Assembly (NCBI GenBank): GCA_017451915.1
Contig: JAFTNJ010000002.1
Coordinates: 7,357-71,356, forward strand
Source of the DNA: Clostridia bacterium
GTDB taxonomy: Bacteria; Bacillota; Clostridia; Oscillospirales; CAG-272
Direction of reading: 5' to 3'
DNA length: 64,000 bases
Shown here piece by piece: positions 634-19,207 of the stretch. The position numbers were made by a program, and so were the translations under genes. Each line of letters begins with the position of its first letter. Within the stretch, counting starts at the first letter, position 1. The notes below the pieces were generated by a model. That model saw nothing but the letters and a program-made list of their open reading frames with translations, ran no database searches and was not told where the DNA came from.

Positions 634-1305
634 ATGTTCAAAATTTTGGTTGTTGAGGATGACCGTGATTTGAATCGCAGCGTTTGCTCTTTTTTGAATC
701 ACAGCGGCTACCAGGCCGTAGGCTGCCTTGGCGCCGAGGATGCCTACGACGAAATGTACCGCACCACCTTTGACCTCATCGTTTCGGATATTATGATGCC
801 CGGCATTGACGGCTTTGAGTTTGCCAAGACCGTGCGGTCGCTGAACAACGATATTCCTATTCTGTTCATGACCGCCCGCGACGATTTTGCCTCCAAGCAG
901 CGGGGCTTCCGCATTGGCATTGATGATTATATGACCAAGCCCGTCGACCTGGATGAGCTTTTTCTTCGCATTGGCGCCCTTCTGCGCCGCTCCAAGATCG
1001 CTTCCAGCCGCCGCCTGGAGGTGGGGAGCTTTGTTATGGACGCCGACGAGCGCTCCGCCGTCCTCAACGGAGAGGAGATTCCTCTGACCGCGCGGGAATT
1101 CGACCTGCTTTATAAGCTTCTTTCCTATCCCAAAAAGACCTTTACCCGTACCCAGCTCATGGACGAATTCTGGGACGTGGATACCCAGACCGGCACCCGC
1201 ACCGTGGACGTGTATATGACCAAGCTCCGTGCCAAGCTGTCGGGCTGTGACGCCTTTGAGATCCAGACGGTGCACGGCCTGGGATATAAGGCGGTGATCA
1301 AGTGA
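634..1305 (+). CDS. OmpR-family response regulator
   Basis: Receiver motifs (VVEDD, DLIVSDIMMPGIDG, K in MTKP) plus a winged-helix C-terminus (LTAREFDLLYKLL...VDVYMTKLRAKL). The stop overlaps the next gene's start (GTGA). Confidence 0.9.
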   Translation: MFKILVVEDDRDLNRSVCSFLNHSGYQAVGCLGAEDAYDEMYRTTFDLIVSDIMMPGIDGFEFAKTVRSLNNDIPILFMTARDDFASKQRGFRIGIDDYMTKPVDLDELFLRIGALLRRSKIASSRRLEVGSFVMDADERSAVLNGEEIPLTAREFDLLYKLLSYPKKTFTRTQLMDEFWDVDTQTGTRTVDVYMTKLRAKLSGCDAFEIQTVHGLGYKAVIK

Positions 1306-2399: not shown

Positions 2400-3288
2400 G
2401 GCCCTTTTATTTCCCCCCATGGTCCTCATGCTCCTCCTGATTCCCGTGGCCACGGTGTTTCTCGTTTACGCCATGGTGGTTTTGGGAACCGAATCGGCCG
2501 TGGCTATTGTATCCTACGTTTTGGCGGCCTACACCTTAACGGTGTGGTGCTTCCGTATTCCTGCGCTGATCGTCTTTTTCAAAACCTTCAGGGAGGAAAA
2601 TAAGCTGGCAAGACGCTGGTTGGAGGACGATCGCCTGCGGGTTAACGTCTCTCTTTACGGATCGCTGATCTGGAATCTTGCCTACGCGATCTTTCAGCTT
2701 TGGCTGGGGATCTATCACCGCACCTTTTGGTTTGGTTCCCTGGCGGGCTATTATTTTCTTCTTGCCGTAATGCGCTTCTTTTTGGTGCGGTATACCGGAA
2801 GCCATCGGGCGGGAGAGCAGATCGAGGTCGAGCTGAAAAAATACCGCGCCTGCGGCTGGGTCTTTCTTTTAATGAACCTGGCCCTGGCCTTGATCGTTTT
2901 CTTTATGGTGTATTGGAATCGAACCTTCCGTCACCATGAGATCACCACCATTGCCATGGCGGCCTACACCTTTACTGCGTTTTCCGTTGCCATTGTCAAT
3001 CTGGTCAAATACCGCAAATATCACAGCCCTGTTTATTCGGCCTCCAAGGCCATCAGCCTTGCCGCGGCGTGCGTTTCTATGTTGACCCTGGAGTCGACCA
3101 TGCTCAATACCTGGGGGCAGGAGGGCGATGCATCCTTTCGCAGGATCATGCTGGCGGCCACGGGAGGCGTGATCTCCCTGTTTATCATTGCCATGGCGAC
3201 GGTTATGATCGTCCGGGGGAGCAGAGCACTGAAGCAAAGAACCGCAATGGAAAAAGAGAAGGAGAAGGGACATGGAAGAAAAGTCTAA
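2377..3288 (+). CDS. polytopic membrane protein of unknown function, co-operonic with the two-component system
   Basis: ATG 2377 lies 7 nt after GGAGGG and overlaps the kinase 3' end by 23 nt. About 8 hydrophobic helices. No family recognised. Confidence 0.6.
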   Translation: MRWKKLGKALLFPPMVLMLLLIPVATVFLVYAMVVLGTESAVAIVSYVLAAYTLTVWCFRIPALIVFFKTFREENKLARRWLEDDRLRVNVSLYGSLIWNLAYAIFQLWLGIYHRTFWFGSLAGYYFLLAVMRFFLVRYTGSHRAGEQIEVELKKYRACGWVFLLMNLALALIVFFMVYWNRTFRHHEITTIAMAAYTFTAFSVAIVNLVKYRKYHSPVYSASKAISLAAACVSMLTLESTMLNTWGQEGDASFRRIMLAATGGVISLFIIAMATVMIVRGSRALKQRTAMEKEKEKGHGRKV

Positions 3289-3679
3289 TCAAGGATTTAC
3301 CTACACGTATTCCGCCAAGGAGCAGGCCGAGATCCGCAGGATCCGGGAGAAGTACGCGCCAAGGGCCGAGGAAGAGGATAAAATGGAGCGGTTGCGCCGT
3401 CTGGATCTGCGAGTTACCCAACGAGCGCAAACGGTTGCGCTGATTCTTGGCGTGCTTGGCACCCTGGTCCTGGGGTTGGGAATGAGCCTGGTGATGTCGG
3501 ATCTGGGAGAGCTCCTGGGGGCGTATCGGAAGCTGGCCATGCCCTTGGGGATCCTTATTGGTGTGCTGGGGTGTATTCCCATCGGTTTTGCCTACCCGGT
3601 GTACCATGTCATCCTTCAGCGGGAGCGGGAAAAAATCGCCCCCGAGATCCTCCGCTTGACCGAGGAATTGCTCAAATAA
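3272..3679 (+). CDS. small membrane protein (135 aa; charged N-terminus, two TM helices)
   Basis: GGAGAAGGGA lies before ATG 3272, which overlaps the preceding gene. A terminator follows. Confidence 0.55.
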   Translation: MEEKSNQGFTYTYSAKEQAEIRRIREKYAPRAEEEDKMERLRRLDLRVTQRAQTVALILGVLGTLVLGLGMSLVMSDLGELLGAYRKLAMPLGILIGVLGCIPIGFAYPVYHVILQREREKIAPEILRLTEELLK

Positions 3680-3738
3680 CGCAGGACATTCCTGTAAAAT
3701 CGAGGTTTTGGGGAGTGTTTTTCGAAAAAAACCGGTTC

Positions 3739-3786
3739 CCATCCCCCCGCTGTTCGCCGCGAACAGCGGGGGGATGGTTTTTTGTT
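3739..3786 (+). terminator. intrinsic terminator ending the two-component operon
   Basis: Stem CCATCCCCCCGCTGTTCG / GAACAGCGGGGGGATGG with loop CCGC, then TTTTTTGTT. Confidence 0.85.
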
Positions 3787-3873
3787 TCTTCTTCCGGTGA
3801 CATCGGCGGTGGAAAAATGAAAATATACTGTAAATTTTTATAGTTGTATTTATTACTTTTTATATCAAGTCTA

Positions 3874-3902
3874 TTGCATATATATAAGAATCGTGATATA
3901 AT
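3874..3902 (+). promoter_or_regulatory. sigma-A-type promoter of the giant-lipoprotein operon
   Basis: TTGCAT 3874-3879, 17-nt spacer, TATAAT 3897-3902 preceded by TG (extended -10), set in a very AT-rich 140-nt gap. Confidence 0.6.
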
Positions 3903-3934
3903 GAAATATGTAACGAAAAATGGGAGGTGAAATC

Positions 3935-6859
3935 ATGAACAAACGACGTTTTTTGGCATTGCTTTTGCTTTGCTCCATGCTCTTTGGGATGATCTCGTGC
4001 CTTCCGGAGGAGGATGACGACGAAGATGTTTACGAGGGCGACATTCTCCTGCACTACTACGTGAATCACGAGGATCCCGCCGGAGAAATGGGCATGATCT
4101 GGGCCAGTGACGGCTGGACGGGTTGGAGCGATTTCCCCAAACGCTTCGGCTATCGCTTTATGGGCTTTTATCTGGATCCCGACTTTCAGACCCTTGCCGT
4201 GGATACCGAGGGCGAGGTTCTTCAGTACCCCGCGGAGGGCGAGCCCATGTATTCCCGCTGGGAGCCCCACACCTTCCACATTCAGTTCGAGGTGGGAACG
4301 GATTGCAAGCTGCTTTCGGAGAAGAATGAGATCGATCTGCTTTACGGAAGCACGGTGGAATCCCTCCCCTTGGCCGAAAAGGAAGGACTGCTCTTTGTTG
4401 GCTGGAAGGACGTCAACGGCAATCTGGTCTCCAACGGCGGCGAGCCTCTTCCCGCCCACAAGCTCTTTACCGACAAGGCTTACGTTTTTAACAGCTATCG
4501 GGCGGTGCTCTCCCCGGTCTTCCGTACCGATGCCTGCATCGTTACCTTTGACTACAACGACGGCACCGGAAAGACCGAGACGCTGGAGGTTCCCCGGGGA
4601 ACCTATCTTACCGAGTCCCAATTTCCCCAGATGGATGACGGAACCAAGCGGATTGCGGCGTGGTCTCTTTACTCCGGTGGAATGAGCAGCTTTACAGAGG
4701 AGATCAACGGGGACATTACCCTCTACGCCTCCTGGCAGAGATACAAACAGGTGACCTTGAACGATACGGTGGGCAAACAGACCACGGTTTACGTTTACGA
4801 GACCCAAGGCTTTGACCTATTGAGCTATGATGAGATCTTCCGCCCCGGCTATCTTTTGGAGGGCTGGTACGACAATGCGGCGTATTCGGGCAATCCGATC
4901 TCCAACCTGACCTATGAAACGGCGGCGGAAACGTATTACGCCAAATGGACCCAAGCAACCTACGTTATTGACTTTGATAAGCTTTCCGCCGGGGAGTCGA
5001 TTGCCTCCTTCACCTATCAAATGGGAGAGAGCATTGCTCTGCGGGAGCTTTCCCGCACCGGCTACACCTTTGAGGGCTGGTGCACCCGGGAGGATCTCTC
5101 GGATCCCCCCATCAAGGAGATCACCTCCGAGTTCTGGGGGTCCTACACCCTTTACGCCAAGTTCACCCCGGATCGTTACACCCTTTCCCTGATGCCCGAG
5201 GGCGGAGCCCTGGACAAGGACGGGATTGAGGTAGACTACGGCGGTTTCTATCAGCTCCCGGTTCCCGTACGGGCCGGAAGTACCTTCCTTGGCTGGTTTG
5301 ACGGCACGGGGAAGAACGCTACGGCTTATACCGACACCGACGGCAAGGCCTTGCAGGCGTATCCCCATCTGTCCAACATTACCCTGTATGCCCATTGGTC
5401 GGTTCAGACCTTTACCGTTCGCTTTGACTTTGGTAACGGCACGGAGGAATCCTATGTGTATTCCTACGGGGACCGTCTGCATTTCCCCAACGAGCCTGTC
5501 AAGGAGGGAATGTTCTTTGCCGGGTGGTATGACCGGGACTACGTCCGCAGCTACGATACCAACACCCCGGTGACCTCGGATCTGGTGCTCTGTGCCAAAT
5601 GGAGTGAGACCAATCCCTTGGCTGTGGGTTCGCCTCTCTATTTCGTGGGAGAGGTCAACGGCATAGTTCACTTCCGCGGACACTATTACAAAGTCTTCAA
5701 GATCACCAGCACCTGGGACCAGGCCCAAAGCCTTTGCGCGTCCATGGGAGGACATCTGGTGACCCTGACCAGTCGCAGCGAAAACGATTTCGTATTTCAG
5801 CTTTGCAAATCCAACGGGACCCATAACTACCATCTCGGTGCCACCGACCGCTCCTTTGAGAGCGTTTGGCAATGGGTGACCGGGGAGGAATGGGACTACG
5901 CCAACTTTGCTCCCTCCGAGCCCGGTGGAGGAACCGGCGAGAATTATCTTGCCTTTTGGACCGGCCGCTTTGACGGCAGCTGGGTGGATTATTCGGGCCA
6001 GGGCTACTTCGTTTGCGAGTGGGAGACCCAACCCGATCTGCTTTCCGGCATGGGGCAGTATAACGGCAACGCCTACCGGGTGTTTGCGGGCTCCTACAGT
6101 TGGGATCAGGCCAAGGCTCTTTGCGAGGCCTTGGGCGGTCATCTTGCCACCCTGACAACGGCGGGAGAGGATCGTTACGTTTACCAGCTTTGTAAGAGCA
6201 ACGGTGCCCTCACCTGCTATCTGGGCGCTTCCGATCGGGAGGCCGAAGGAGAATGGAAGTGGGTCACCGGTGAAAAATGGGAGTATTCCCGCTTTGCGGC
6301 CGGCGAGCCCAGTAGCGGAAGGAGCGAAAACTTCCTTTCCTTCTATTCGGGACACACCGACGGTGGCTGGAACGATTATTCCGGCTCCACCTCCTTTGTT
6401 TGCGAATGGGAGGCCGGGGACGTGGACGATGCCCTTTCCAATTTTGCCTACGTGATCAGCGATGACGCAACCTACAACGGCGCCTTCTATTACGCCGGGC
6501 ATTTGTACCAGATTCTTTCCGCCGAAATGGATTACGAGGCGGCGCAGGCCTACTGTCAATCCCTGGGCGGACATCTCGCAACCGTGGAAACCGCCGAGGA
6601 GAACGCCGCGCTCTATTCCTACATCTCCCGTTCGGGCAATATCTTCTGTGCCCTGGGAGGCTCGGATAAGGACGTGGAGGGAACCTGGGTGTGGGTCAAC
6701 GGCACGCCCGTTCCTGCTACCAACTGGGCAACCAACGAGCCTAACAACGCCAGCGGTGCCGAGCATTATCTGTATTTTGCGGAGGGCGGATACGGAACCT
6801 GGAACGATACTACTTGGCGCAACCGTTTCCTTTGCGAATGGGATTACTGTCCCCGATGA
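3935..6859 (+). CDS. lipoprotein with Listeria-Bacteroides (Flg_new/InlB B-repeat type) repeats and three C-terminal C-type lectin domains (974 aa)
   Basis: ORF 3920..6859 trimmed to ATG 3935 after GGAGG 3922-26. Signal MNKRRFLALLLLCSMLFGMISC carries a lipobox. GY-F-GW repeat motifs recur throughout. There are three W-DQA-CxxxGGHLATL...W-WVTGE...EP...FVCEWE modules. Confidence 0.85.
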   Translation: MNKRRFLALLLLCSMLFGMISCLPEEDDDEDVYEGDILLHYYVNHEDPAGEMGMIWASDGWTGWSDFPKRFGYRFMGFYLDPDFQTLAVDTEGEVLQYPAEGEPMYSRWEPHTFHIQFEVGTDCKLLSEKNEIDLLYGSTVESLPLAEKEGLLFVGWKDVNGNLVSNGGEPLPAHKLFTDKAYVFNSYRAVLSPVFRTDACIVTFDYNDGTGKTETLEVPRGTYLTESQFPQMDDGTKRIAAWSLYSGGMSSFTEEINGDITLYASWQRYKQVTLNDTVGKQTTVYVYETQGFDLLSYDEIFRPGYLLEGWYDNAAYSGNPISNLTYETAAETYYAKWTQATYVIDFDKLSAGESIASFTYQMGESIALRELSRTGYTFEGWCTREDLSDPPIKEITSEFWGSYTLYAKFTPDRYTLSLMPEGGALDKDGIEVDYGGFYQLPVPVRAGSTFLGWFDGTGKNATAYTDTDGKALQAYPHLSNITLYAHWSVQTFTVRFDFGNGTEESYVYSYGDRLHFPNEPVKEGMFFAGWYDRDYVRSYDTNTPVTSDLVLCAKWSETNPLAVGSPLYFVGEVNGIVHFRGHYYKVFKITSTWDQAQSLCASMGGHLVTLTSRSENDFVFQLCKSNGTHNYHLGATDRSFESVWQWVTGEEWDYANFAPSEPGGGTGENYLAFWTGRFDGSWVDYSGQGYFVCEWETQPDLLSGMGQYNGNAYRVFAGSYSWDQAKALCEALGGHLATLTTAGEDRYVYQLCKSNGALTCYLGASDREAEGEWKWVTGEKWEYSRFAAGEPSSGRSENFLSFYSGHTDGGWNDYSGSTSFVCEWEAGDVDDALSNFAYVISDDATYNGAFYYAGHLYQILSAEMDYEAAQAYCQSLGGHLATVETAEENAALYSYISRSGNIFCALGGSDKDVEGTWVWVNGTPVPATNWATNEPNNASGAEHYLYFAEGGYGTWNDTTWRNRFLCEWDYCPR

Positions 6860-6901
6860 ATTCGGGTTTGCATAAGATTTTAACCTTTGGAGGAGAACGT
6901 T

Positions 6902-9900
6902 TTGAAGAGAAGATTTTTATGGATCCTGTTGGGTCTGCTGCTCCTGGCGGTCTGCTTTACCGCCTGCGATTCGGGGGACGATCCCGACGTTGGCTCTCAG
7001 CAGGGCGGTGATGTTACCGTTACCTATTACATCACCGTAGGCGGCGAGGCGAATCAGTTCATCGCTTACGACGGTGTGCTGGAGCTCTACGATATCCCCG
7101 CGCGTATGGGATACGAGTTCCTGGGCCTTTACGATGCGCCCGAGGGCGGTAGCCAGATCGTAACGCCCATGGGCACCGGCAACGTGCAGGTTACCAAGCC
7201 CCTGACGCTGTACGCCCATTGGAGAGCACTCTCCTATACCATCACCTTCCTTCCCGGGGAGGGCTCCCTGCCCGAGGGGCAGAGCACGATGACGGTGCTC
7301 TACGGGGAGACCCTGAGCATCTTCCCGATTCCCGAGCGGGAGGGCTATGATTTCGTTGGTTGGGACGACGGTTACGGCGCCCTCTGCTCCACCGGCGGCA
7401 CGGTCAATGAGGACAAGAGAGTTTTTGACGAAAGCTCCTACTATTTTGTCAATACCGGCGTGACCCTCCGTGCCCAATGGAAGGAAAAGAAGCTTGCCGT
7501 GGTATTCGATTACAACGACGGCACCTACAAGACCGACGCTATGGAGGTGGCCTACGGTCTGCCTCTGGATCCCTCTACCTTCCCCCAGGTGGACGACGGA
7601 ACCAAGTTCATTACGGGCTGGTCCCTCAGCCGCAGCTCTCAGATCAACTTTGAGGGCAAGGTGACCGAGGATCTGACCCTCTACGCGATCTGGCAGGAGT
7701 ACAAGACCCTCTCGATCTATACCGAGATCGGTACCGAGCCCGAGCAGATCCGCATTTTCCGCAACGAGATCTTCGAGTGTCCCACCCCCACCAAGGATGG
7801 CTATTGGTTCGACGGCTGGTATTCCTCCACGCTCTTCTCGGGTCTGCCTCTGACCAACGTGACCTTTGGCGCGGGTGTCAGTGAGATCTACGCCAAGTGG
7901 ACCCCTGTGGAGTACAAGATCCAATTCGTAACCAACAACGGCACGTCCCTGCCCGACGGAAGCTATACCATTGAGACCTCCGTTACCCTGCCCACCCTGC
8001 AGAAGGATTATTGCAAGTTCCTTGGCTGGTGCATGAACGAGGATCTTTCGGACATTCCCATGCTCACCCTTCCCACGGGGCTGACCGGGGACATGACCCT
8101 GTACGCCAGCTTCCGCGGTGAGAACCGCGCCATGATCCTGGATCCCGACGGCGGCTTTGTTTCCAACAGCTTTATCACCGTGGAATACGGCAAGAGCTAC
8201 GTGCTGCCGGTTCCCATGCGGGACGGCTACGCGTTTGTTGGCTGGTACTCCGCGGACGGAGTTCAATACACCGATGCCAACGGCAACGCCCTATTTGAGT
8301 GCGATCTCACGGTGCCGGACATTTCCCTGATTGCAAAATACGACAAGAAATATTACGTTCTCTACGATTCCAATCTGACCGGTGCCGGCTCCATCACCGT
8401 CAACGAGTATTATCTGGCGGGAGAAACGGTTACGGTGGAGCTCAAGGTCAATCCCGGATACCGTTACATAAGCATGTCTTACAACGGCACGCCTCTGGTG
8501 ACCGGACTGAAATACACCTTTGTGATGCCTGAGGAGAACGTGACCATTACCGGTACCTTTGAGGCTTTGGTCTACCGCGTGGGACTCAATCCCAACGGCG
8601 GCTTCAGCAAGGACAACATGGCAACCCTGACCTTTGGTCAGTCGTATAGCCTGCCCGTGGCCTGGAAGACGGGAATGCTCTTTGTTGGTTGGCGTACCCC
8701 GGATGGGGAATTGCTCACCGACGAGAACGGCAACTCTTTGAAGGCATGGCACCTGACCGAGAGCATGAGCCTGGAGGCTTCCTTTGTGGAGAATCCCGAC
8801 GGTGACGCCTTCATTTTGGTGTACGACGTTGAAACCTTCCTTTCCATGAAGGAGAATCCCTCCAAGACCTACACTCTGGTCAGCAACATTGACCTGTTGG
8901 GTGTGACCTGGACTCCCTTCGAGTTCAGCGGCAACCTCAACGGCAACGGCTTTACCATTAAGAATCTGACCGTTACTACTTCCGCTGACTACGGCGGTAT
9001 GTTTACCACGCTGACCGGAACGGTGCGGGACCTCAATTTTGAAAACCTGACGGTCACCAATACCCAAACCGGCCTGAATCACACCGGCGGTGTGTGTGGC
9101 TACCTGAATTCGGGTACGCTGAATAACGTTCATATCAAATCGGGCAGCATTACGGCAAAGAATGCCGATCTGGGCGGTCTGGTTGGTAATATGAGCAAAA
9201 ACGGCGCCAACATCGTTAAAAATTGCAGCAACAGCGCACAGGTCCTCAACGAATCCACCTCGGGGCAGCGTGCTACCGGCGGTATCGTGGGTTATTACCA
9301 GAACAATGCCGGATTGGTTACCGATTGCGTTAACCACGGCGCGGTGTCCGGCTCCAACTGTGTGGGCGGTATCCTCGGTTATATGGAATTTACCGGTGTT
9401 CTTCCCACCCAAAACCTGATCAACTACGGTGAGATCAACGGTACGACCTACGTGGGCGGCCTGATCGGTCGCATTAACACGGGCTTGGATTCCTCCATCC
9501 AATGGAATTCCGTCAACCACGGTAAGGTAACGGGTACCACCTACGTGGGCGGTTTGATTGGTGAGCTCTATGCCTCCACCGGTGGAAATCGCACGCTGGT
9601 TCTGAGTGATTTTACCAACCACGGAGAGACCGTGGGAACCGAGTGTGTGGGCGGCGTGATTGGCCGAATCCACATCAGCTCGGGTGGCTACGTCAAGCTG
9701 GACGCCGCTAAACTGATCAACGACGGCGCGGTGACCGGACGCAACTACGTGGGCGGTCTGCTCGGTTACGGTTATACCGATACCGACGAATCCAAGATCG
9801 TCAACTCGCAAAGCAGCGGTGTCATTACGGCAGAGTACTACCTTGGCGGTATTGCGGGTAGGCTGGAGAACATTCAGCTGGATTCCTGCTCCAATAAGGG

Positions 9901-12900
9901 AACCACCATTACCTGTACGGGTAGTCTGACACAAAATTCCACCTATTATACTTACGCGGGCGGCTACGTGGGCTACGGCGAGTGCGTTACCAACTGTATC
10001 AACGAGGCCGCGATTACCATTCTTCAAAAGGGTAGCTACGTTGGCGGTATCGCCGGATATACCGTCGGTGCCATCAACGGCTGTACCAACACCGGGGCGA
10101 TTACGGCTCCCGAGTGTGATTACGTGGGCGGTATCGTTGGATTCAACCTCGTTGACGATTCCGGCACCTCCTCTCAGCTTACCAACAGCGGAGCGATCGT
10201 TGGTCAAAAATATACCGGCGGTATTTTCGGTCGGTGTCAGTTCTCCCATTGGGATAACCGTACGGGCACGATTTCCAATTACATCAACAGCGGCACGGTC
10301 ACCGGTACCGTGTACGTTGGCGGTCTCTTTGGTGAATTCTACTCCGCGGCCGACGGTGGAGACGCCTTCACGGTTCAGCTTTCCGCCCTCAAGAATACCG
10401 CTGACGTTACGGGTACGAGTTACGTAGGCGGTTTGATGGGTCGAGGCATTGCCGATACCAATGCTTCCAAGCTCACCGAATCCTCCAGCGCGGGTGTGAT
10501 CACCGCCGAGTATTACGTGGGCGGTCTGGCAGGAATGCTGGATACCCTGACCATGGACAACTGCTCCAACAAGGGCAGCACCGTAAACGCCACCAAATAT
10601 CTGTTGGATGGCACCAACTACTACACCTACGCCGGCGGCTACGTTGGCTACGGTTACATTATTATTAATTGTAAGAACGAAGCCGATCTGACCTGCGCAG
10701 AGCAGGGAAGCTACGTGGGCGGTATTGCCGGATATACCAGCAGTTACGTGACCAAGTGTAGCAACACCGGCGCCATCTCGGCTCCCAAGTGCAACTACGT
10801 GGGCGGTATTGTGGGATATATGTCCATCTCCGATACAGCCGCCAGCGAATCCTTGGAGAACAGCGGCGCTGTGACGGGTAAGAACTACGTGGGCGGTATT
10901 GTCGGATACTGCAGATGCTACCATTGGGATCCCCGCACGGCGACCTTCAACAAGTACGTCAACAGCGGTGCCGTGAACGGTGAGGAATGCGTGGGCGGTA
11001 TCTTTGGCGAGCTTTACACCTATGCCGACGGCAGCGACGTTTACACCGTGACCATGAGTGCCTTCCAGAACATGGGCGACGTTACGGGTATCAAGTACGT
11101 GGGCGGTCTGCTCGGCAAGGGCTATTCGGACCATTGGAGCACCATGACGGGCTCCTCGGTTTCCGGAACGATCACGGGTGAAACCTACCTGGGCGGCTTG
11201 CTTGGATATTTCGAGCATCTGAACGTGTCGGGCTGCTCCAATGCGGGAACCACGTTGACCGTTACCGGCAAGTCCGAATACATCGGCGGCTTTGCAGGAT
11301 ATTTGCACGGATCCATCAGCTCCTGCACCAACGTCATTGACGTGGTCGCACCCGAAAGCAATTACGTGGGCGGTATCGCGGGATATCTCTACATCAACGA
11401 GACCACGACCTCGGAGCTCCTGTCCAACACCGGTACCGTGAAGGGTAAGAATTACACGGGCGGTATCGCCGGACGCTACCAGCTTTACCATTGGGATAAC
11501 CGCACGGGAACCCTTTCCAAGTACACCAACAGCGGTGCGGTGACCGGTGCCGAATACGTGGGCGGTATCATCGGTGAGATCTACTCCGCGGCAGATAGCG
11601 GCGATGTTTACACCTTCTTCCTCTCCGAGTTTACCAACACGGGCAACGTGACCGGTAGCCACTACGTTGGCGGCTTGCTGGGTAAGGGTCGCTCGGATAC
11701 GGGCAACTCCAAGCTTTCCTCCTCCACCAGCTCCGGCGTGATTACTGCCGAGTACTACGTGGGCGGTCTGGCAGGCTATATGGAGAGCGTACAGATCGAG
11801 ACCTGCTCCAACACGGGCAGTACCGTAAACGCCACCAAGTATCTGGTGGACGGAACCAACTATTATACCTACGTCGGCGGTTACGTCGGACGCGGATATA
11901 TTATTAATAATTGTAAGAACGAAGCCAATATTCTCTGCACTCTGCAGGGAAGCTACGTTGGTGGTATTGCCGGTTATACCGATCACTATATTACCAACTG
12001 TAGCAACAGCGGAACCGTTACGGCCCTCAAGTGTGATTACGTGGGCGGTCTTGCCGGTTACGTTTACCTTCCCGCAACGGCGGTCTGCGAGAGTCTAACC
12101 AACACCGGCGCGGTGAAGGGCAAGAACTACGTAGGCGGTATGATCGGTTACCTCAAGGCCTACTACAGCAACGGCGGTACGGCAACCTTCTCCAATCTTA
12201 CCAATAGCGGCGCGATCACCGGTACCGATTACGTTGGCGGTATGATTGGTGAACTCTACGCAGACGCCTATAGTAGCAGCTCCTTTACGGTTCTGATCGC
12301 TGAGTTCAAGAACACGGCCAACGTCACGGGAACCAACTACGTGGGCGGTCTGATCGGTAAGGGATATACCGACACCTGGAACAGTAGGTTCACCGGATGC
12401 ACCAACGAGGGCACGGTCACGGGTACCTCCTACCTGGGTGGTCTGGCCGGTAAGCTTCAGTACTTTGGTGTGGAGAACTGCACCAATGAGAACACGGTTC
12501 TTGCCGTGACCGGCAAGGGCGATTACATCGGCGGTCTGATCGGTTACGCGCATTGCATGATGAATTCCTGCAGCAACAGCATCGACGTTATCGCTATCAA
12601 TAGCAATTACGTGGGTGGCGTTGCGGGTTACATCTACGTGAACGAGACCTTCACCTCCTCCTTGCTGGAGAACGTTGGAACGGTCACCGGTAAGGATTAC
12701 GTTGGCGGTATTGCCGGACGTATCGAGGGCAACCATTGGGATAACCGCACGGGTACGCTTCTTCAGTACACCAATAGCGGCGATATTACGGGTGCTATGT
12801 GCGTTGGCGGCCTCGTGGGCGAGGTCTACGGCAATGCCGATAGCGGCGACGTCTTTACCATGCTGATTTCCGAAATGGAAAGCACGGGCAAGGTGAAGGG

Positions 12901-15076
12901 TACCTACAACGTAGGTGGCCTGTTCGGTGAATGCGACACCGACACGCTGAACTCCAAGATCTCTTTGAGTACCGCGATCTGCACCGTGACCGGTGAGTAT
13001 TACGTTGGCGGTATCGTTGGCTGGAGTGATATGAAGCTGGAGCAGTGCACCAATGCGGGATGCACCGTGGAAGCTACGAAGTACGTTCTCAAGGATTCTG
13101 TAAACTGCACCTATCTGGGCGGTATGGCAGGCTACTGCGGCTCCACCATTTCCGATTGTGTCAACGAGGCTACCCTGATCGTCACCGGCAAGGGCAACTA
13201 CGTTGGCGGCGTGGTCGGTTATGCTACCGGAGCATTGAATTCCTGCTCCAACGTGGTCAATATCTCGGCTCCCGTCAACAGCTACGTGGGCGGTGTGGCA
13301 GGTTATATCCGTATTTCCGAGGGCTTTACCTCCGCGTTCCTGGAGAATAGCGGTAACGTTACGGGTAAGAACTACGTGGGCGGTATTGCCGGTCATTACG
13401 AGGGCTACCATTGGGATAACCGCACGGGTACCATTTCCCAGCACAAGAACAGCGGTGCGATCCTCGGTGAGGAATACGTGGGCGGTATTGCCGGTAATCT
13501 CTACTCGGTGGCCGACGGCGGTGACACCTACACCCTGCTCATCACCGAAATCGAGAACACGGGCAACGTTACGGGTAAGTGCTACGTTGGCGGTTTGTTC
13601 GGCAAGGGATCGAGCGATAACGGAAATTCCATGATCTCCGCCGGCTCGGTGGTCTGCGAGGTTACGGGTGAGTATTACGTGGGCGGTCTTGCCGGACGGC
13701 TGGATGCTATCGGGCTGGAGGCCTGCACCAACCGCGGAACCACCGTTAACGCCACCAAGCATTTCCTGGACAATTCGGTTTATTACACCTATGCCGGCGG
13801 CTTTGCCGGATACGGATACAAGGTTTCCGAGTGTACCAATGAGGCTACGCTGGTGATTGGTGGCAAGGGCTGCTACGTTGGCGGCGTGGTTGGTTACTGC
13901 GTCAACGCCCTCACCTCCTGCTCCAATATCATGAACGTGATCGCTCCCGAAAGCAACTACGTTGGCGGTATTGCGGGCTATGCTTACAGAGACGGCGATC
14001 TGACGATGAGCGATCTCTCCAACAGCGCAACCGTAACGGGTAAGAACTACGTGGGCGGTGTGTTTGGATATCAGCATTTGTACAACTATTACAGCAAGTC
14101 AGCAAGCCTTGGAAACTTTGTCAACAGCGGCAACGTTACGGGTGCCGAGTTCGTTGGCGGTATCGTTGGTGAGCTTTACGCCGTAGGTGACGGCGGTGAT
14201 ACCTATAAGGTGATCATGACCGAGTACGTGAATACCGGTAATATTACGGGTACGCACTACGTAGGCGGTCTGATCGGTAAGGGCGCAACCGACCACGGGG
14301 ACTCCAAGATCATGGATAGCTCCAGCGCGGGCGTGATCACCGGCACTTATTACGTCGGCGGTCTGGCGGGTTATTTGAATACCGTTCAGATGGAGGCCTG
14401 CTCCAACGCCGGAACCACCCTCAAGGGTCTTGGCCACTTTGTGGACGGTAGCGAGAACCGCACCTATGCCGGCGGTTACGTTGGCTACGGCTACTCCGTT
14501 AAGGATTGTAAAAACGAAACCGATATCATTTTCACCGACGTTGGCGGATGCATTGGCGGTATTGCGGGATACGCCACCTGGATCGTGGATTCCTGCACCA
14601 ATACGGCGAACATCGTTGCTCCTTCCTCGGATTACGTGGGCGGTATCGTTGGATATCTTTACAATAACGGAAGCGTTACCTCGTCCGCTCTGGAGAACAC
14701 CGGCCTGATCTCGGGTAACAATTACGTGGGCGGTCTGATCGGTAAATATCAGCTTTACAATTATTACACCAAGACCGCAACCCTTTCCAACTACGTCAAC
14801 CGCGGTGCCGTGAACGGTGCCGAGCACGTAGGCGGTATCGCCGGAAATCTGAACGCATACGGCGATGGCGGAGATACCTACAAGGTTACCATGACCGAGA
14901 TCTTTAATACCGGTAATATTAACGGTAAGAATCTGGTTGGCGGCCTGATCGGTGCGGTGGAAACCGACCACAGCGGCTCTGCTTTGTCAGATTATGCGTC
15001 CGGCGGAACGGTAACCGCGATCTCGGGCACCGGCGGCGAGCTGTTCGCTCAAGTCAAAAATCTGGTCGTAAACTAA
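6902..15076 (+). CDS. giant lipoprotein (~2724 aa): Flg_new-type repeats followed by a ~2000-aa GLUG-motif beta-helix-like repeat array
   Basis: ORF 6887..15076; the likely start is TTG 6902 after GGAGGAG 6889-95. Signal KRRFLWILLGLLLLAVCFTAC carries a lipobox. The N-terminal third is collinear with the preceding protein. After that come dozens of xYVGGxxG turns. Confidence 0.85.
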   Translation: MKRRFLWILLGLLLLAVCFTACDSGDDPDVGSQQGGDVTVTYYITVGGEANQFIAYDGVLELYDIPARMGYEFLGLYDAPEGGSQIVTPMGTGNVQVTKPLTLYAHWRALSYTITFLPGEGSLPEGQSTMTVLYGETLSIFPIPEREGYDFVGWDDGYGALCSTGGTVNEDKRVFDESSYYFVNTGVTLRAQWKEKKLAVVFDYNDGTYKTDAMEVAYGLPLDPSTFPQVDDGTKFITGWSLSRSSQINFEGKVTEDLTLYAIWQEYKTLSIYTEIGTEPEQIRIFRNEIFECPTPTKDGYWFDGWYSSTLFSGLPLTNVTFGAGVSEIYAKWTPVEYKIQFVTNNGTSLPDGSYTIETSVTLPTLQKDYCKFLGWCMNEDLSDIPMLTLPTGLTGDMTLYASFRGENRAMILDPDGGFVSNSFITVEYGKSYVLPVPMRDGYAFVGWYSADGVQYTDANGNALFECDLTVPDISLIAKYDKKYYVLYDSNLTGAGSITVNEYYLAGETVTVELKVNPGYRYISMSYNGTPLVTGLKYTFVMPEENVTITGTFEALVYRVGLNPNGGFSKDNMATLTFGQSYSLPVAWKTGMLFVGWRTPDGELLTDENGNSLKAWHLTESMSLEASFVENPDGDAFILVYDVETFLSMKENPSKTYTLVSNIDLLGVTWTPFEFSGNLNGNGFTIKNLTVTTSADYGGMFTTLTGTVRDLNFENLTVTNTQTGLNHTGGVCGYLNSGTLNNVHIKSGSITAKNADLGGLVGNMSKNGANIVKNCSNSAQVLNESTSGQRATGGIVGYYQNNAGLVTDCVNHGAVSGSNCVGGILGYMEFTGVLPTQNLINYGEINGTTYVGGLIGRINTGLDSSIQWNSVNHGKVTGTTYVGGLIGELYASTGGNRTLVLSDFTNHGETVGTECVGGVIGRIHISSGGYVKLDAAKLINDGAVTGRNYVGGLLGYGYTDTDESKIVNSQSSGVITAEYYLGGIAGRLENIQLDSCSNKGTTITCTGSLTQNSTYYTYAGGYVGYGECVTNCINEAAITILQKGSYVGGIAGYTVGAINGCTNTGAITAPECDYVGGIVGFNLVDDSGTSSQLTNSGAIVGQKYTGGIFGRCQFSHWDNRTGTISNYINSGTVTGTVYVGGLFGEFYSAADGGDAFTVQLSALKNTADVTGTSYVGGLMGRGIADTNASKLTESSSAGVITAEYYVGGLAGMLDTLTMDNCSNKGSTVNATKYLLDGTNYYTYAGGYVGYGYIIINCKNEADLTCAEQGSYVGGIAGYTSSYVTKCSNTGAISAPKCNYVGGIVGYMSISDTAASESLENSGAVTGKNYVGGIVGYCRCYHWDPRTATFNKYVNSGAVNGEECVGGIFGELYTYADGSDVYTVTMSAFQNMGDVTGIKYVGGLLGKGYSDHWSTMTGSSVSGTITGETYLGGLLGYFEHLNVSGCSNAGTTLTVTGKSEYIGGFAGYLHGSISSCTNVIDVVAPESNYVGGIAGYLYINETTTSELLSNTGTVKGKNYTGGIAGRYQLYHWDNRTGTLSKYTNSGAVTGAEYVGGIIGEIYSAADSGDVYTFFLSEFTNTGNVTGSHYVGGLLGKGRSDTGNSKLSSSTSSGVITAEYYVGGLAGYMESVQIETCSNTGSTVNATKYLVDGTNYYTYVGGYVGRGYIINNCKNEANILCTLQGSYVGGIAGYTDHYITNCSNSGTVTALKCDYVGGLAGYVYLPATAVCESLTNTGAVKGKNYVGGMIGYLKAYYSNGGTATFSNLTNSGAITGTDYVGGMIGELYADAYSSSSFTVLIAEFKNTANVTGTNYVGGLIGKGYTDTWNSRFTGCTNEGTVTGTSYLGGLAGKLQYFGVENCTNENTVLAVTGKGDYIGGLIGYAHCMMNSCSNSIDVIAINSNYVGGVAGYIYVNETFTSSLLENVGTVTGKDYVGGIAGRIEGNHWDNRTGTLLQYTNSGDITGAMCVGGLVGEVYGNADSGDVFTMLISEMESTGKVKGTYNVGGLFGECDTDTLNSKISLSTAICTVTGEYYVGGIVGWSDMKLEQCTNAGCTVEATKYVLKDSVNCTYLGGMAGYCGSTISDCVNEATLIVTGKGNYVGGVVGYATGALNSCSNVVNISAPVNSYVGGVAGYIRISEGFTSAFLENSGNVTGKNYVGGIAGHYEGYHWDNRTGTISQHKNSGAILGEEYVGGIAGNLYSVADGGDTYTLLITEIENTGNVTGKCYVGGLFGKGSSDNGNSMISAGSVVCEVTGEYYVGGLAGRLDAIGLEACTNRGTTVNATKHFLDNSVYYTYAGGFAGYGYKVSECTNEATLVIGGKGCYVGGVVGYCVNALTSCSNIMNVIAPESNYVGGIAGYAYRDGDLTMSDLSNSATVTGKNYVGGVFGYQHLYNYYSKSASLGNFVNSGNVTGAEFVGGIVGELYAVGDGGDTYKVIMTEYVNTGNITGTHYVGGLIGKGATDHGDSKIMDSSSAGVITGTYYVGGLAGYLNTVQMEACSNAGTTLKGLGHFVDGSENRTYAGGYVGYGYSVKDCKNETDIIFTDVGGCIGGIAGYATWIVDSCTNTANIVAPSSDYVGGIVGYLYNNGSVTSSALENTGLISGNNYVGGLIGKYQLYNYYTKTATLSNYVNRGAVNGAEHVGGIAGNLNAYGDGGDTYKVTMTEIFNTGNINGKNLVGGLIGAVETDHSGSALSDYASGGTVTAISGTGGELFAQVKNLVVN
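9500..15000 (+). repeat. in-frame tandem super-repeat inside the giant gene (units of about 675 nt and 567 nt)
   Basis: The anchor CATTGGGATAACCG (HWDNRTG) recurs at 10247, 10922, 11489, 12734 and 13409, giving spacings of 675, 567, 1245 and 675 nt. Degenerate equivalents lie near 12170, 14085 and 14760. Confidence 0.8.
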
Positions 15077-15103
15077 CGACCTGAAAATAAAAGGAGAAAA
15101 ACT

Positions 15104-18100
15104 ATGAAGATCAAACTTTTGAGCGTTGCGATTCTGCTCATTCTTGCGAGTTTGTTGTTGGTATCCTGCGATACGGCCCTGGAGCTTGCCGCACCCACCA
15201 ACATTCGTTATGACGGAACGCATATCACATGGAATGCGGTGGAAAATGCCGACAGCTACACCGTGCAGATCAACAATGGGGAAGCCTACACCGTTAATTC
15301 GCCCCTGTACCCCTACGAGGCAAACGGTGCCACCTTTTCAGTAACCGTTACCGCGGTCTCCGATGCCAAAAAGGTGATCAAGTCCGGGGAAACGGTGGTC
15401 AATTTCAAGCCCCTGGGCTCCATTGACACCATTCGCATCAGCGATGACGGCGTTCTTTCCTGGGACGTTGTCAACCATGCCACCGCCTACACCCTGAAGG
15501 TGGACGGCGTTGAGCATTCCGGTACCGTTACGGGAACCACCTACGCAGGTCTTCCCGTAGGTCGCCACAGCGTACAGGTGCGTCCCGTGATCGACGGTGA
15601 CACCTCCTACTACTCCTCCTGGAGTAACGCGGTGGTGGTGGAGATCCTGGGATCGGTTGCCAAGGATGATATCACCTACGACAACGGCTACATTAAGTGG
15701 AAGTACGTAAACGGCGCGCAGTACTACGAAGTATCCGTGAACGGCGTTCCCCTGGATTCCAAGTGCACCGGAACCCAGATCGAGTACGATCCCAACAACA
15801 CCGGATTTGAGGTGACTGTTAAGGCCATCGGTAACCACAGCTCTACCTTCGACGGCAAGGTTTCCGATGCCAAGAAGTTCGTCTTCCTGGATACCGTTAC
15901 CAACATTATCGTTGAGGACGGCATTCTGAAGTGGGATCCCATCAACGGTGCCGACGGCTACAAGATCAAGCTCAACGGCTCGGTTTATGCCCAAACTCTG
16001 ACCGAGTGCAAGTTTGATAAGCTTTCCGCCGACGTAACCACCGACGTATCCATTATGCCCATCAGCAACGATACCACCTATTTCTCGGGTTGGTCGGATA
16101 CCAAGAGCGTGCTGATCCTCTCGGCTCCTGTCATCCGTTGGAACGACTATGAGCTGGACGGCCAGGCAAACAGCAACGTTTATTGGGATGGCATTGCCAA
16201 TGCCGCAGGCTATGCGGTTCGTTTGACTCTGCCCGATGGCTCTACCGTGATCGAAACCTTTGGCGAGACCCAGCGGTACTTCCAGCAGGCCTACCTGCAG
16301 ACCGGTACCTATCTGGTAGAGGTCAAGGCCCTTGCCAACACCACCTCCAGCAATGTTTACGATTCGGTTTACTCCGCGTCGATCAAGGTAGTTCGTCTGG
16401 CTGCTCCCAAGGCTGCCGGAACCAACTACATCACCAGCAATCCCAACGACCTGGACGACGGCTTTACCGTTACCTTTGATAAGGTTGCCGGCGCTACCCA
16501 GTACCGTCTGTATAAGGACAACGTGCTGGACCGCACCATCTCGGGCAGCAATAACCAGTTTGTGGTAAAGGATCTTGCCGCCGCAGGCGTGATCGAGGAG
16601 CAGACCTACAACTACGCCATTCAGAGCGTTGGCTCGGTGCAGACCGTCAACGGCCAGATCGTGGCAACGTTGAGCTCTCTGACCGCAAACTCCCACAAGT
16701 TCTCCATCACCGTGCTGGCAACTCCCGCATCGCCTGATATTGACGGCTACAAGTATTCCTACGGCATGGTCAATAAGGCTGCCGGCTACGTGATCGACGT
16801 TGGCGGACAGAGCTTCTCCAGCGGCGAGACCTCCTACGAGCTGAGTATGCTGGAGGCCGGCGTTTACAGCGTTAGTGTTTGCGCCAAGGGCAACGGAACC
16901 AACGTTCTGCCCTCCAACTACTCCGCCCCCATCAGCGTACACCGCCTGGAGGCACCCACCAACGTGCGCATCGATACCTCCGAGGCCTCCGAGGGTGTTC
17001 TGACCTTCAACCCCGTGCTCTATGCTTCGGGCTACTATATCGTATTCAATAACGATGGCAATCCCATTCCCGTGGACACCATCAGCAACATGAACCAGTA
17101 CATTACCGAGCAGGGTACCACCGTATATCTGCAGAGCTCGGCCAACTACTTCAATACCGACAGAACCGTTTACTACATGACCTCCAAGCCGGGTACCACC
17201 ACCAACTTTATCAAGCTGGCGGCTCCCACCTTTGGTGACGTGGCCTTCAACCGCAACCAGCTGATCTGGAAGGCTCCCGTTAACGTCAACACCCAGGCCT
17301 ACACTCCCACCTACGAGGTCTACTATCCCAACGGTATGATCTACAACGGTGAGAAGAACGGTACCACCATGGATATTACCCACCTGGAGGGCGGACAGAG
17401 CTACGAGTTCCAGGTAAAGGCCATCGGTAACGGCACCAACTTCATCAACTCCGAAAAGTCTGCCGTAGTCAGCATCTACAAGCTGGCAACGCCTCAGGTG
17501 AGCCGTGTGGACGGTGCCTACACCTGGAACGGTGTTGCAGAGGCCGTCAGCTACGCCATCTACATTGACGGTGTTTTGATGGAGACCTTTGTTCACGAGC
17601 CCGGAAAGACCTATTCCTACGTTCCCAATTTCACCGAGCTGAAGGTTTACACCGTGGAAGTGATTGCCATTGGTGACGGCGGATACCGCAGCATCGATTC
17701 CTCTCCTTGCACCATTCTCCAGGAGACCAAGCAGCTGCAAACACCTGATTTCAGTCTCTCCTACAGCGACGCTTACTACACCGAGTCGGGTACGGTCAAC
17801 GTGACCATCACCAAGGAAAGCCCCTATGCCAAGGGTTATGCCTACACGGTTGGCGGCGCAACCTATGAGAAGACCGAAACCACCTATTCCTACCGTCCCA
17901 ATAGCGTAGGCAACATCGTTGCAAGAGTTTACGCCATTGGCGGTAACTTCGACGAGAACGGCGTTTACTATCTGGATTCCCAGTCCGTGGGTGGCAACAG
18001 CAGATATTCCATTACGCTGCTGGCATCTCCCGATCCCGCTTCCTTTACTCTGACGGCCGACGGCCTTTTGAAGTGGCCTGCCATCTCCGGTACCGGCAAG

Positions 18101-18286
18101 TATGAGCTGGAGATCTCCGTCGACGGCGTGATCACCACCGTGACGGTGAGTGGCGCAAGCTACGATCTGAACAAGAGTGGCATCAACGTCAGCAAGGTCA
18201 GCACGCTGATCGTACGCGTGCGCGCCCTTGGTAACGGCGTGGATACCGTTACCTCTGCCCAGGCAGAGAAGCGTTGGGATCTTTGA
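15104..18286 (+). CDS. lipoprotein made of about 12 tandem FN3/Ig-like modules (1060 aa)
   Basis: AAAGGAG lies before ATG 15104. Signal MKIKLLSVAILLILASLLLVSC carries a lipobox. The module signature aP-n...g-l-W--v-gA--Y-v recurs about every 85-90 aa. Confidence 0.8.
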   Translation: MKIKLLSVAILLILASLLLVSCDTALELAAPTNIRYDGTHITWNAVENADSYTVQINNGEAYTVNSPLYPYEANGATFSVTVTAVSDAKKVIKSGETVVNFKPLGSIDTIRISDDGVLSWDVVNHATAYTLKVDGVEHSGTVTGTTYAGLPVGRHSVQVRPVIDGDTSYYSSWSNAVVVEILGSVAKDDITYDNGYIKWKYVNGAQYYEVSVNGVPLDSKCTGTQIEYDPNNTGFEVTVKAIGNHSSTFDGKVSDAKKFVFLDTVTNIIVEDGILKWDPINGADGYKIKLNGSVYAQTLTECKFDKLSADVTTDVSIMPISNDTTYFSGWSDTKSVLILSAPVIRWNDYELDGQANSNVYWDGIANAAGYAVRLTLPDGSTVIETFGETQRYFQQAYLQTGTYLVEVKALANTTSSNVYDSVYSASIKVVRLAAPKAAGTNYITSNPNDLDDGFTVTFDKVAGATQYRLYKDNVLDRTISGSNNQFVVKDLAAAGVIEEQTYNYAIQSVGSVQTVNGQIVATLSSLTANSHKFSITVLATPASPDIDGYKYSYGMVNKAAGYVIDVGGQSFSSGETSYELSMLEAGVYSVSVCAKGNGTNVLPSNYSAPISVHRLEAPTNVRIDTSEASEGVLTFNPVLYASGYYIVFNNDGNPIPVDTISNMNQYITEQGTTVYLQSSANYFNTDRTVYYMTSKPGTTTNFIKLAAPTFGDVAFNRNQLIWKAPVNVNTQAYTPTYEVYYPNGMIYNGEKNGTTMDITHLEGGQSYEFQVKAIGNGTNFINSEKSAVVSIYKLATPQVSRVDGAYTWNGVAEAVSYAIYIDGVLMETFVHEPGKTYSYVPNFTELKVYTVEVIAIGDGGYRSIDSSPCTILQETKQLQTPDFSLSYSDAYYTESGTVNVTITKESPYAKGYAYTVGGATYEKTETTYSYRPNSVGNIVARVYAIGGNFDENGVYYLDSQSVGGNSRYSITLLASPDPASFTLTADGLLKWPAISGTGKYELEISVDGVITTVTVSGASYDLNKSGINVSKVSTLIVRVRALGNGVDTVTSAQAEKRWDL

Positions 18287-18361
18287 TTAACCACTGCTTA
18301 AAATAACCCTGTGGGGCGCATGAGCTTTCCGTTTGTGCGCCCCATGTTACGGAGAACTGCT

Positions 18362-19183
18362 ATGAGTCAAGTATTTTTCAATCTTCTCGTTCATTTGTTT
18401 TATTTTATCGGAACGGTGTTTTTGATCGGCTTTGCCATTCATCACCTGAATCGGTTGTTCTACCGACTGTTGGATTACCGTATGGGGATCTGCTATGCCA
18501 CCGGCGTGATCGGAACCCCCATTCACGAGCTGAGTCACGCGGTTGCCTGCTTGCTGTTCCGTCACAAGATCCAAGAGATGCGCCTGTTCCAGATCGACCG
18601 TGAGAGCGGCGTTCTTGGCTACGTGTCCCATTCCTACAATCCCAAAAGCCTTTACCAACGGGTGGGGAATTATTTCATTGGCGTGGCACCCATCCTGGTG
18701 GGAACGCTGTTCCTTTGCTGGATGATGAAGCTGCTGCTGCCCGAGGCCTTTTCCGAGTTTACCGAGTACCTGGGGGATTTTTCCTACTTGCAGGGCAAGG
18801 GTGTTTCCTGGAAATGGCTGGCCTATGCCTGGGCGGTCTTTTGGGGAAGTATAGAGATCCTGTTTTCGTCGATCTCCGCGGGGCTCCATTGGTGGATCTT
18901 TATGATCCTGGCCCTTTGTGTGTCCATTCACATGAACCTGAGCGGTGCCGATATCAAAGGGGCGCTTTCGGCCCTGCCGTTGCTGGCCGTTTTGCTGGCG
19001 GTGGCGCACGCGGTGCTGTTCTTCCTGCCCGGTGATCTTTACGCGGGCTTTGTGCAGGGGGTCAACGTAGCGGGAAGCTACCTGACGGGGATCCTATTGC
19101 TCTCTCTGTTGCTCTCGGTCTTTTCGGTGGGACTTGCGGCCGTTGGTGCCGGGATCTCCCGCTTGTTGGGGCGGAGAAGATAA
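18362..19183 (+). CDS. polytopic membrane protein with an HExxH motif (DUF3267-like putative zincin)
   Basis: ORF 18311..19183 trimmed to ATG 18362 after GGAG. HELSH follows the first TM helix and there are about 6 TM helices. Confidence 0.6.
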   Translation: MSQVFFNLLVHLFYFIGTVFLIGFAIHHLNRLFYRLLDYRMGICYATGVIGTPIHELSHAVACLLFRHKIQEMRLFQIDRESGVLGYVSHSYNPKSLYQRVGNYFIGVAPILVGTLFLCWMMKLLLPEAFSEFTEYLGDFSYLQGKGVSWKWLAYAWAVFWGSIEILFSSISAGLHWWIFMILALCVSIHMNLSGADIKGALSALPLLAVLLAVAHAVLFFLPGDLYAGFVQGVNVAGSYLTGILLLSLLLSVFSVGLAAVGAGISRLLGRRR

Positions 19184-19207
19184 GACAAAACCGAAGAAAA
19201 AACAAAA

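Follow-up and report, generated by a model that had tools for sequence, protein, structure and literature searches.

C-type lectins are usually regarded as an invention of animal innate immunity. What, then, do three domains of this kind do at the end of a bacterial protein, and does any of them carry the calcium site through which animal lectins hold sugars? The question is raised by a gene in a 64,000-nucleotide stretch of contig JAFTNJ010000002.1 from a Clostridia bacterium (assembly GCA_017451915.1), which was analyzed as a whole and is referred to below as the window. The gene lies at 3935..6859 on the plus strand and encodes a product of 974 amino acids, here called the lectin protein. 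A preliminary description had presented it as a lipoprotein with three animal-type C-type lectin domains (CTLDs), of which the third keeps the EPN and WND motifs. The explanation that we find best, and probable on the strength of sequence comparisons and structural models, is that of a membrane-anchored, Ca-dependent glycan-binding adhesin.

The Pfam model Lectin_C (PF00059) matches the whole protein in three stretches with an E-value of 7e-37, at which a chance match is excluded. Searched one by one, the modules each gave a significant full-length match, with scores of 49.6 bits for CTLD1, 49.0 for CTLD2 and 53.3 for CTLD3 against a cut-off of 22.6, and with positions 2 or 3 to 106 of the 107 in the model covered. 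With borders taken from a profile built in this analysis, the domains are placed as follows.

5666..6037, plus strand: CTLD1, amino acids 578-701; EPG at 5918-5926 and WVD at 5981-5989; three of five Ca-site-2 ligands; cysteines C1 and C4 present, Tyr at C2 and Gly at C3
6053..6421, plus strand: CTLD2, amino acids 707-829; EPS at 6305-6313 and WND at 6368-6376; four of five Ca-site-2 ligands; extra cysteines C753 and C761
6485..6856, plus strand: CTLD3, amino acids 851-974; EPN at 6737-6745 and WND at 6800-6808; five of five Ca-site-2 ligands; Tyr at C2 and Trp at C3

These borders enclose all three modules as they had first been drawn (5681-6026, 6071-6412 and 6499-6846), and the EPG/WVD, EPS/WND and EPN/WND motifs lie exactly where they had been placed. 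CTLD3 ends in ...FLCEWDYCPR, in which C967 is C4, and the stop codon follows. At the position of the WIGL motif the domains read YHLGATD, CYLGASD and CALGGSD, keeping the Leu-Gly and the following Asp and losing the Trp. With the same profile, no other open reading frame (ORF) of the window proved to contain a CTLD. Among PDB sequences, single domains best matched DC-SIGN/DC-SIGNR, langerin, CD23, mincle, collectin-11 and SP-D (E about 1e-12), and the three-domain region best matched DEC-205, FcRY, PLA2R and the mannose receptor.

The predicted structures point the same way. An AlphaFold2 model of CTLD3, made with 64 related domain sequences, reached a pLDDT (predicted local distance difference test) of 90.6 and a pTM (predicted template modelling score) of 0.84, with block means of 91-98 in the long-loop region. 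The model of all three domains reached a pLDDT of 88.3, with an equal order of helices and strands in each domain, and the order expected of a CTLD (beta0/beta1, two helices, beta2, long-loop region, beta3-beta5) was found. A Foldseek search of the PDB with the CTLD3 model returned collectin-11 (4yli, 9srk), DC-SIGN (2xr6, 1k9i), DC-SIGNR, SP-D, langerin and mincle, superposed at a root-mean-square deviation (rmsd) of 1.8-2.5 Å, a template modelling (TM) score of 0.71-0.78 and an identity of 24-32%. The top matches are sugar-bound carbohydrate-recognition domains (CRDs) of the EPN type (4yli, 9srk, 2xr6, 1k9i, 1k9j and 4m18; rmsd 1.8-2.3 Å, TM score 0.73-0.78). The CTLD fold with its long-loop region is thus predicted with confidence, and the Lectin_C match and the predicted fold agree on a canonical CTLD rather than the C-type lectin (CLec) domain of the kind found in diversity-generating retroelement (DGR) and FGE-type proteins, as had been proposed.

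Three known groups invite comparison. The mannose-receptor family (MR, DEC-205, PLA2R, Endo180 and FcRY) also has tandem CTLDs and gives the best whole-region sequence match (E 2e-27), a score that is merely additive over repeated domains. Foldseek likewise matched the three-domain model to this family at E 2e-22, but domain by domain only: the inter-domain arrangement is not superposable (rmsd about 19 Å, TM score about 0.3). The hallmarks of the family, a CysR and an FNII domain followed by 8-10 CTLDs and a C-terminal transmembrane helix, are missing, and Pfam shows only Flg_new and Lectin_C in the lectin protein. With the C-terminal domain of intimin and invasin and with the variable proteins of DGRs (Mtd/TvpA/FGE), the lectin protein has in common a distant superfold and the position of a ligand-binding domain at the tip of a surface protein, a role described for bacterial and phage proteins of the CTLD superfold (PMC8286594). 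Those proteins belong to other sequence families and have no EPN/WND calcium site, whereas the window domains match Lectin_C over its full length. The lectin protein is a member of none of these three groups.

The decisive residues are those of the calcium site. We aligned the modules of the lectin protein, together with those of its ortholog (see below), to DC-SIGN and rat MBP-A, whose sequences were confirmed as exact PDB chains. The reference ligands of Ca site 2 in DC-SIGN are E347, N349, E354, N365 and D366. The comparison, which the preliminary description had itself proposed, finds all five kept in CTLD3, matching the DC-SIGN and MBP-A set: E935 and N937 of the EPN motif, E943, and N957 and D958 of the WND motif. 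The E, P, N, E, W, N and D of the alignment are all conserved in CTLD3, and in the ortholog likewise. CTLD2 has four of the five (E, S, E, N, D) and CTLD1 three (E, G, E, V, D). In the ortholog, CTLD3 again has five of five and CTLD2 the same E, S, E, N, D, a conservation that is drawn from two sequences. At site 1, the equivalents of D320 and E324 are kept in all three modules and that of N350 in CTLD3, where D911, E915 and N938 are followed by His944 as the fourth residue. Compared with animal EPN-type CRDs, CTLD3 is therefore identical in the EPN, Glu and WND of Ca site 2 and shares three of four site-1 ligands. Judged by these residues, CTLD3, alone of the three, qualifies as a mannose-type (EPN) CRD.

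The cysteines tell a different story from the motifs. All three window modules have C1 and C4, while C2 is replaced by Tyr or Phe and C3 by Gly or Trp; CTLD3 of the ortholog is without C4 too. The label "animal-type" consequently holds for the fold and the motifs and fails for the disulfide signature: the positions of the C1-C4 pair are kept, the C2-C3 pair is lost in every module, and the four-cysteine pattern expected from the animal domains is not there. By sequence, the three modules are canonical members of the CTLD family minus the C2-C3 disulfide, as are most of their prokaryotic relatives. Further differences from animal EPN-type CRDs are the reduction of WIGL to xLG, the extra cysteines C753/C761, C905 and C972, and the setting of the domains, which have no neck, coiled coil or collagen region and stand on a bacterial lipoprotein stalk. 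The extra cysteines (C753 and C761, encoded within 6191-6217; C905, 6647-6649; C972, 6848-6850) are conserved in the prokaryotic clade. In prokaryotic domains that we call type A (FC..., CWLG), a cysteine pair joins helix alpha2 to the start of beta2; in type B, one Cys lies at beta2 and another after C4 (CEWDxxC). The extra cysteines may form clade-specific disulfides that replace C2-C3. Candidate pairs are C753-C761, C905-C972 and, at the classical C1-C4 positions, C874-C967; Tyr945 against Trp961 may also stand in for the lost C2-C3 bond.

How unusual is such a protein? A search with the three-CTLD region returned 1012 proteins at E ≤ 1e-3. The best 113 all come from prokaryotic genomes or metagenomes, and the first animal protein, from the bivalve Mya arenaria (P0114), appears at rank 114; among the best 120 matches, those with an organism name are all bacterial or archaeal except for one bivalve protein. 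The statement that classical Lectin_C domains are uncommon in bacteria was thus too strong, given 1012 homologues of which the best-scoring named ones are nearly all bacterial or archaeal. The relatives come from Clostridia (P0037, for example), Ruminococcus (P0081 and P0084), Planctomycetota (P0074), Deltaproteobacteria, Hodarchaeales (P0012), Methanofastidiosia and Nitrosopumilus, and at NCBI they go under such names as "lectin-like protein" or "C-type lectin domain-containing protein". Domains of this kind are therefore widespread and already annotated in prokaryotes, and the window protein is not a rarity, nor is its structure a surprise. Identity of the window domains reaches 51% with prokaryotic domains, as against 24-32% with animal CRDs. 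As far as sequence can tell, they are typical members of a large prokaryotic Lectin_C branch and not a recent import from an animal.

The domain-level figures that follow refer to 270 CTLDs taken from the best 120 of the 1012 proteins. EPN is present in 130 of the 270, QPD in 45, EPS in 25 and WND in 164, and EPN with WND outnumbers every other motif pair; site 2 is complete in 89 domains of the EPN type and 31 of the QPD type. The pattern of C1 and C4 only is found in 188 domains, which at C2 have Tyr more often than any other residue (88 of 188). Just five domains have all four cysteines, and they belong to two eukaryote-like matches, P0108, which carries EGF domains, and the Mya arenaria protein. 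By a simple hydropathy rule, a signal-like N-terminal segment is present in 91 of the 117 relatives with a complete N-terminus. Partner domains in the relatives are SLH, dockerin, Big_2, GH25, ricin-B, Laminin_G_3 and peptidases; SLH, dockerin, Big_2, GH25 and ricin-B are extracellular, glycan-related company. Flg_new occurs together with Lectin_C in only one other protein (P0070) among the best 120.

The closest relatives are P0001 and P0004-P0010. P0001, the closest of all, has a signal peptide, three CTLDs in the same order, Cys-rich repeats and a C-terminal transmembrane helix, and shares with the window protein the final ...CEWDxxC motif. The closest prokaryotic relatives are type-I membrane proteins, whereas in the window protein the cassette forms the C-terminal end of a lipoprotein with Flg_new repeats. 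The lectin cassette is nevertheless membrane-distal in both P0001 and the window protein, though their anchors sit at opposite ends, and since it lies farthest from the anchor in each we read it as an outward-reaching binding head.

Some of the relatives have surroundings or sources worth recording in their own right. The closest two-CTLD homologues, P0009 and P0008 (L010:5477-9488 and L011:518-9416), are type-I membrane proteins whose genes immediately follow those for DO-GTPase2, GAP1-N2, Transglut_core and Imm33, and L010 has three Lectin_C genes in tandem; such surroundings may place extracellular CTLD receptors in the setting of a conflict or signalling system. Archaeal Lectin_C proteins are many (P0012, P0013, P0038, P0045, P0058 and P0060, from Asgard archaea of the Hodarchaeales/Hodarchaeota, Methanofastidiosia and Nitrosopumilus) and bear on the origin of the animal CTLD. 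We found no characterized prokaryotic PF00059 domain in the literature searched, a weak negative, as many journals lie outside its coverage; the "bacterial C-type lectin" of PMC8092209 is LecB, which has a different fold.

A single ortholog of the lectin protein was found (L004), in a metagenome-assembled genome (MAG) named "Clostridia bacterium HGM12691". Identity to it extends over all 974 residues and amounts to 74%, and the gene downstream of it is also the same. A scan of genome contigs yielded this one true ortholog, the other five loci matching the Flg_new stalk only, and a scan of metagenome contigs gave stalk-like matches and no further ortholog. Identity to the ortholog is 74% in CTLD1, 85% in CTLD2, the most conserved module, and 62% in CTLD3. 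The ratios of nonsynonymous to synonymous substitution (dN/dS) are 0.135, 0.084 and 0.198 respectively, against 0.86 in the linker between CTLD2 and CTLD3; they are rough values, as dS is near saturation. On this comparison purifying selection appears to act on each of the three modules.

The rest of the protein is an anchor and a stalk.

3935..4000, plus strand: predicted lipoprotein signal peptide, MNKRRFLALLLLCSMLFGMIS, then C; Cys22 is the predicted lipidation site
4001..5644, plus strand: stalk, an acidic linker and then at least five Listeria-Bacteroides repeats (Flg_new, PF09479 / TIGR02543)

The signal, a pattern read by eye, is laid out as MNKRR-FLALLLLCSMLFG-MIS-C, in which a basic n-region and a hydrophobic core lead up to a lipobox that ends in Cys. 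This lipobox is MISC, and the ortholog has a canonical LASC (...LLGLASC) at the same place, in keeping with the earlier assignment as a lipoprotein. The stalk of about 550 amino acids consists of Flg_new repeats, which Pfam detects in the whole protein at E 6e-38; on amino acids 1-575 PF09479 scores 135 bits in five stretches, above its cut-off, and TIGR02543 matches the stalk with 65 bits. Both matches link the stalk to surface proteins with Listeria-Bacteroides repeats (Flg_new, or InlB B-repeats), and internalin models match it weakly in their B-repeat region. Unlike those proteins, the lectin protein has no LRR domain and neither an LPXTG nor a GW anchor, and its anchoring is predicted to occur through N-terminal lipidation instead.

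The gene stands first in a compact group of four, the remainder of which is arranged as follows.

6902..15076, plus strand: giant lipoprotein-like gene, about 2724 amino acids; Flg_new stalk that is a paralog of the lectin stalk; head made up of eight or more repeats with GLUG motifs
15104..18286, plus strand: third gene, a lipoprotein of 1060 amino acids after a 27-nt gap; lipobox LLVSC; weak fn3 and DUF4992 matches
18311..19183, plus strand: fourth gene, a polytopic membrane protein after a 24-nt gap; HELSH (HExxH) motif; weak Peptidase_M50B match
19203-19238: hairpin after the fourth gene

In the public call the giant neighbour starts at 6902, 43 nt past the lectin stop codon; its longest ORF starts at TTG 6887, 27 nt past the stop. 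Its N-terminal 480 or so amino acids are 34% identical to the lectin stalk (E 5e-78), and at the DNA level 4547-4668 and 7505-7626, within the two stalks, are 79-80% identical. Its head consists of at least eight copies of a 675-nt (225-amino-acid) repeat with GLUG motifs. The lectin protein and the giant neighbour thus have a common stalk and different heads, and this pairing of two lipoproteins suggests a surface adhesion or glycan-capture module. The metalloprotease-like product of the fourth gene may process or release the lipoproteins. With gaps of 24-43 nt between the genes, a terminator upstream and a hairpin downstream, the four form a putative operon.

Upstream of the lectin gene we read the following signals.

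3739-3777, plus strand: strong intrinsic terminator; 18-bp stem with 13 G-C pairs, and a T-run
3874..3902, plus strand: putative promoter in an AT-rich spacer; TTGCAT (3874-3879), 17 nt, extended -10 TGaTATAAT (3894-3902)
3922..3937, plus strand: Shine-Dalgarno sequence GGGAGGTG and start codon ATG 3935, from the sequence and the public 974-residue record

The putative promoter was read by eye; its -35 hexamer matches at three of six positions, and a promoter scanner did not list it. The longest ORF over the interval (3920..6859, plus strand) would give a 979-residue form. Since ATG 3920 overlaps the Shine-Dalgarno sequence GGGAGGTG at 3922-3929, which precedes ATG 3935, we take the latter as the real start; public assemblies record the 974-residue form, and a look-up there returned no record of the 979-residue one. 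Farther upstream, 634-3679 holds genes for an OmpR-type response regulator and a histidine kinase, along with two small ORFs of membrane type that have no Pfam match. The terminator at 3739-3777 cuts the lectin gene off from this two-component-system operon. The same set of genes precedes the lectin gene on public contigs L001-L003; with a strong terminator between, a role for the two-component genes as its regulators is possible and unsupported.

Elsewhere the window carries chromosomal housekeeping genes, among them ilv/leu genes and those for TyrRS, PFK, QueA and MiaA. Identity of the TyrRS is 100% with that of a "Clostridia bacterium" MAG and about 92% with TyrRS from Ruminococcaceae/Oscillospiraceae MAGs. 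Carbohydrate-active genes were seen in the window only at its far end, at 61586-63560 on the minus strand, about 55 kb from the lectin gene; they encode a GH43-like glycoside hydrolase and UxuA (mannonate dehydratase). Two patches of low GC (42001-46000 and 50001-52000; 0.41-0.47, versus about 0.55 elsewhere) hold an ORF with no Pfam match (43824-44846) and an HTH_3 gene (51004-51870, minus strand), and may be small islands of foreign DNA.

We propose the following working model. The host is probably a monoderm gut Clostridia bacterium related to the Oscillospiraceae/Ruminococcaceae. The lectin protein would be exported and probably lipid-anchored through Cys22, and its stalk would place the three CTLDs at the tip farthest from the membrane. 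For CTLD3 we predict Ca2+ binding at site 2 through the five residues named above (E935, N937, E943, N957 and D958), and the ion would contact sugars with equatorial 3- and 4-hydroxyls, that is, of the mannose, GlcNAc (N-acetylglucosamine), glucose or fucose type; DC-SIGN, MBP-A and collectin-11 serve as models for this binding. CTLD2 combines EPS with WND, as do some animal CTLDs that bind sugars, and may bind likewise. CTLD1, with EPG and WVD, probably lacks a canonical site and would either have another ligand or act as a spacer. A tandem array of three domains would give avidity. The ligands could come from host mucus, from the diet or from other microbes.

Several observations weigh against this model. 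Conservation is lowest in CTLD3, whose site is the best of the three, and the saturation of dS limits what can be drawn from the selection estimates. The modules lack the C2-C3 disulfide, with which animal CRDs brace the loops of the Ca site. In place of the fourth site-1 ligand (D355), CTLD3 has His and the other two modules have Asn. The geometry of the calcium site was judged from the overall superposition only. No glycan-utilization genes adjoin the lectin operon. Finally, many CTLDs bind proteins or other ligands.

The last point leads to the strongest competitor, to which we give a minor though real chance: the CTLDs would bind protein or other non-carbohydrate ligands in the style of natural killer (NK) cell receptors, snake-venom proteins or lithostathine, with EPN and WND kept for a structural Ca2+. 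The CTLD fold accommodates many types of ligand, the three-domain model also matches CD23 and lithostathine in Foldseek, and CTLD1 and CTLD2, with their incomplete sites, are conserved more strongly than CTLD3. However, both orthologs keep the complete five-residue site in CTLD3, the best structural matches are sugar-bound CRDs, and EPN or QPD with WND is dominant among the prokaryotic relatives (89 plus 31 complete sites of 270), which is what would be expected if sugar binding were selected.

Somewhat less probable still, in our estimate, is that the head does bind glycans, but those of the bacterial wall, either the cell's own (for retention or organization of a surface layer) or those of other bacteria (for co-aggregation or targeting). 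The fusions of Lectin_C to GH25 muramidase (P0013, P0018 and P0044) or to SLH in relatives, in which a wall-binding role would be natural, keep a bacterial cell-wall ligand in play; EPN sites also accept GlcNAc, and the operon's other products are surface proteins and not glycan-degrading enzymes. A long stalk with a distal head nonetheless resembles an outward-reaching adhesin more than a wall anchor.

A receptor-binding CLec protein that is diversified by a DGR or derived from a phage, or a component of a defence system, is very improbable: CLec-fold domains are customary DGR targets (compare PMC5758913 and PMC11661182) and some close relatives adjoin DO-GTPase2, GAP1-N2 and Imm33 genes, but the Pfam match is to Lectin_C rather than an FGE-type domain and the surrounding genes are chromosomal housekeeping. 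The DGR reading is close to refuted, as no repeat that could form a template and variable repeat (TR/VR) pair was found on the CTLD DNA (5645-6856) within 3000-20000 and no reverse transcriptase (RVT family) was present among the window ORFs scanned; the operon proteins had no PADLOC or PHROG match, and the defence-system and phage readings were rejected.

The Ca-dependent, glycan-binding adhesin remains the reading that we prefer, and the value of the finding lies mainly in the family: a large prokaryotic branch with a cysteine signature of its own (C1 and C4, with Tyr at C2) and, in a large fraction of its domains, EPN or QPD with WND. Three stalked CTLDs, one of them with an intact mannose-type calcium site, make the lectin protein a good and easily expressed candidate with which to begin the biochemical testing of prokaryotic PF00059 domains. 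A bolder proposal, which we regard as a long shot, is that prokaryotic Lectin_C domains form a large clade of Ca-dependent lectins that do without the C2-C3 disulfide, and that this lipoprotein binds glycans of the host-lectin type (high-mannose, fucose or GlcNAc). If this were true, such domains would provide cysteine-poor CTLD scaffolds that can be expressed in bacteria, and would bear on a prokaryotic origin of the animal CTLD. The bacterium would then read glycans on mucus, immunoglobulin A (IgA), diet or other microbes, as a commensal that competes with or mimics recognition by host C-type lectins. Binding to host-type glycans, if it occurs, would make the protein a commensal adhesin of a new kind that recognizes the sugars of DC-SIGN and MBL.

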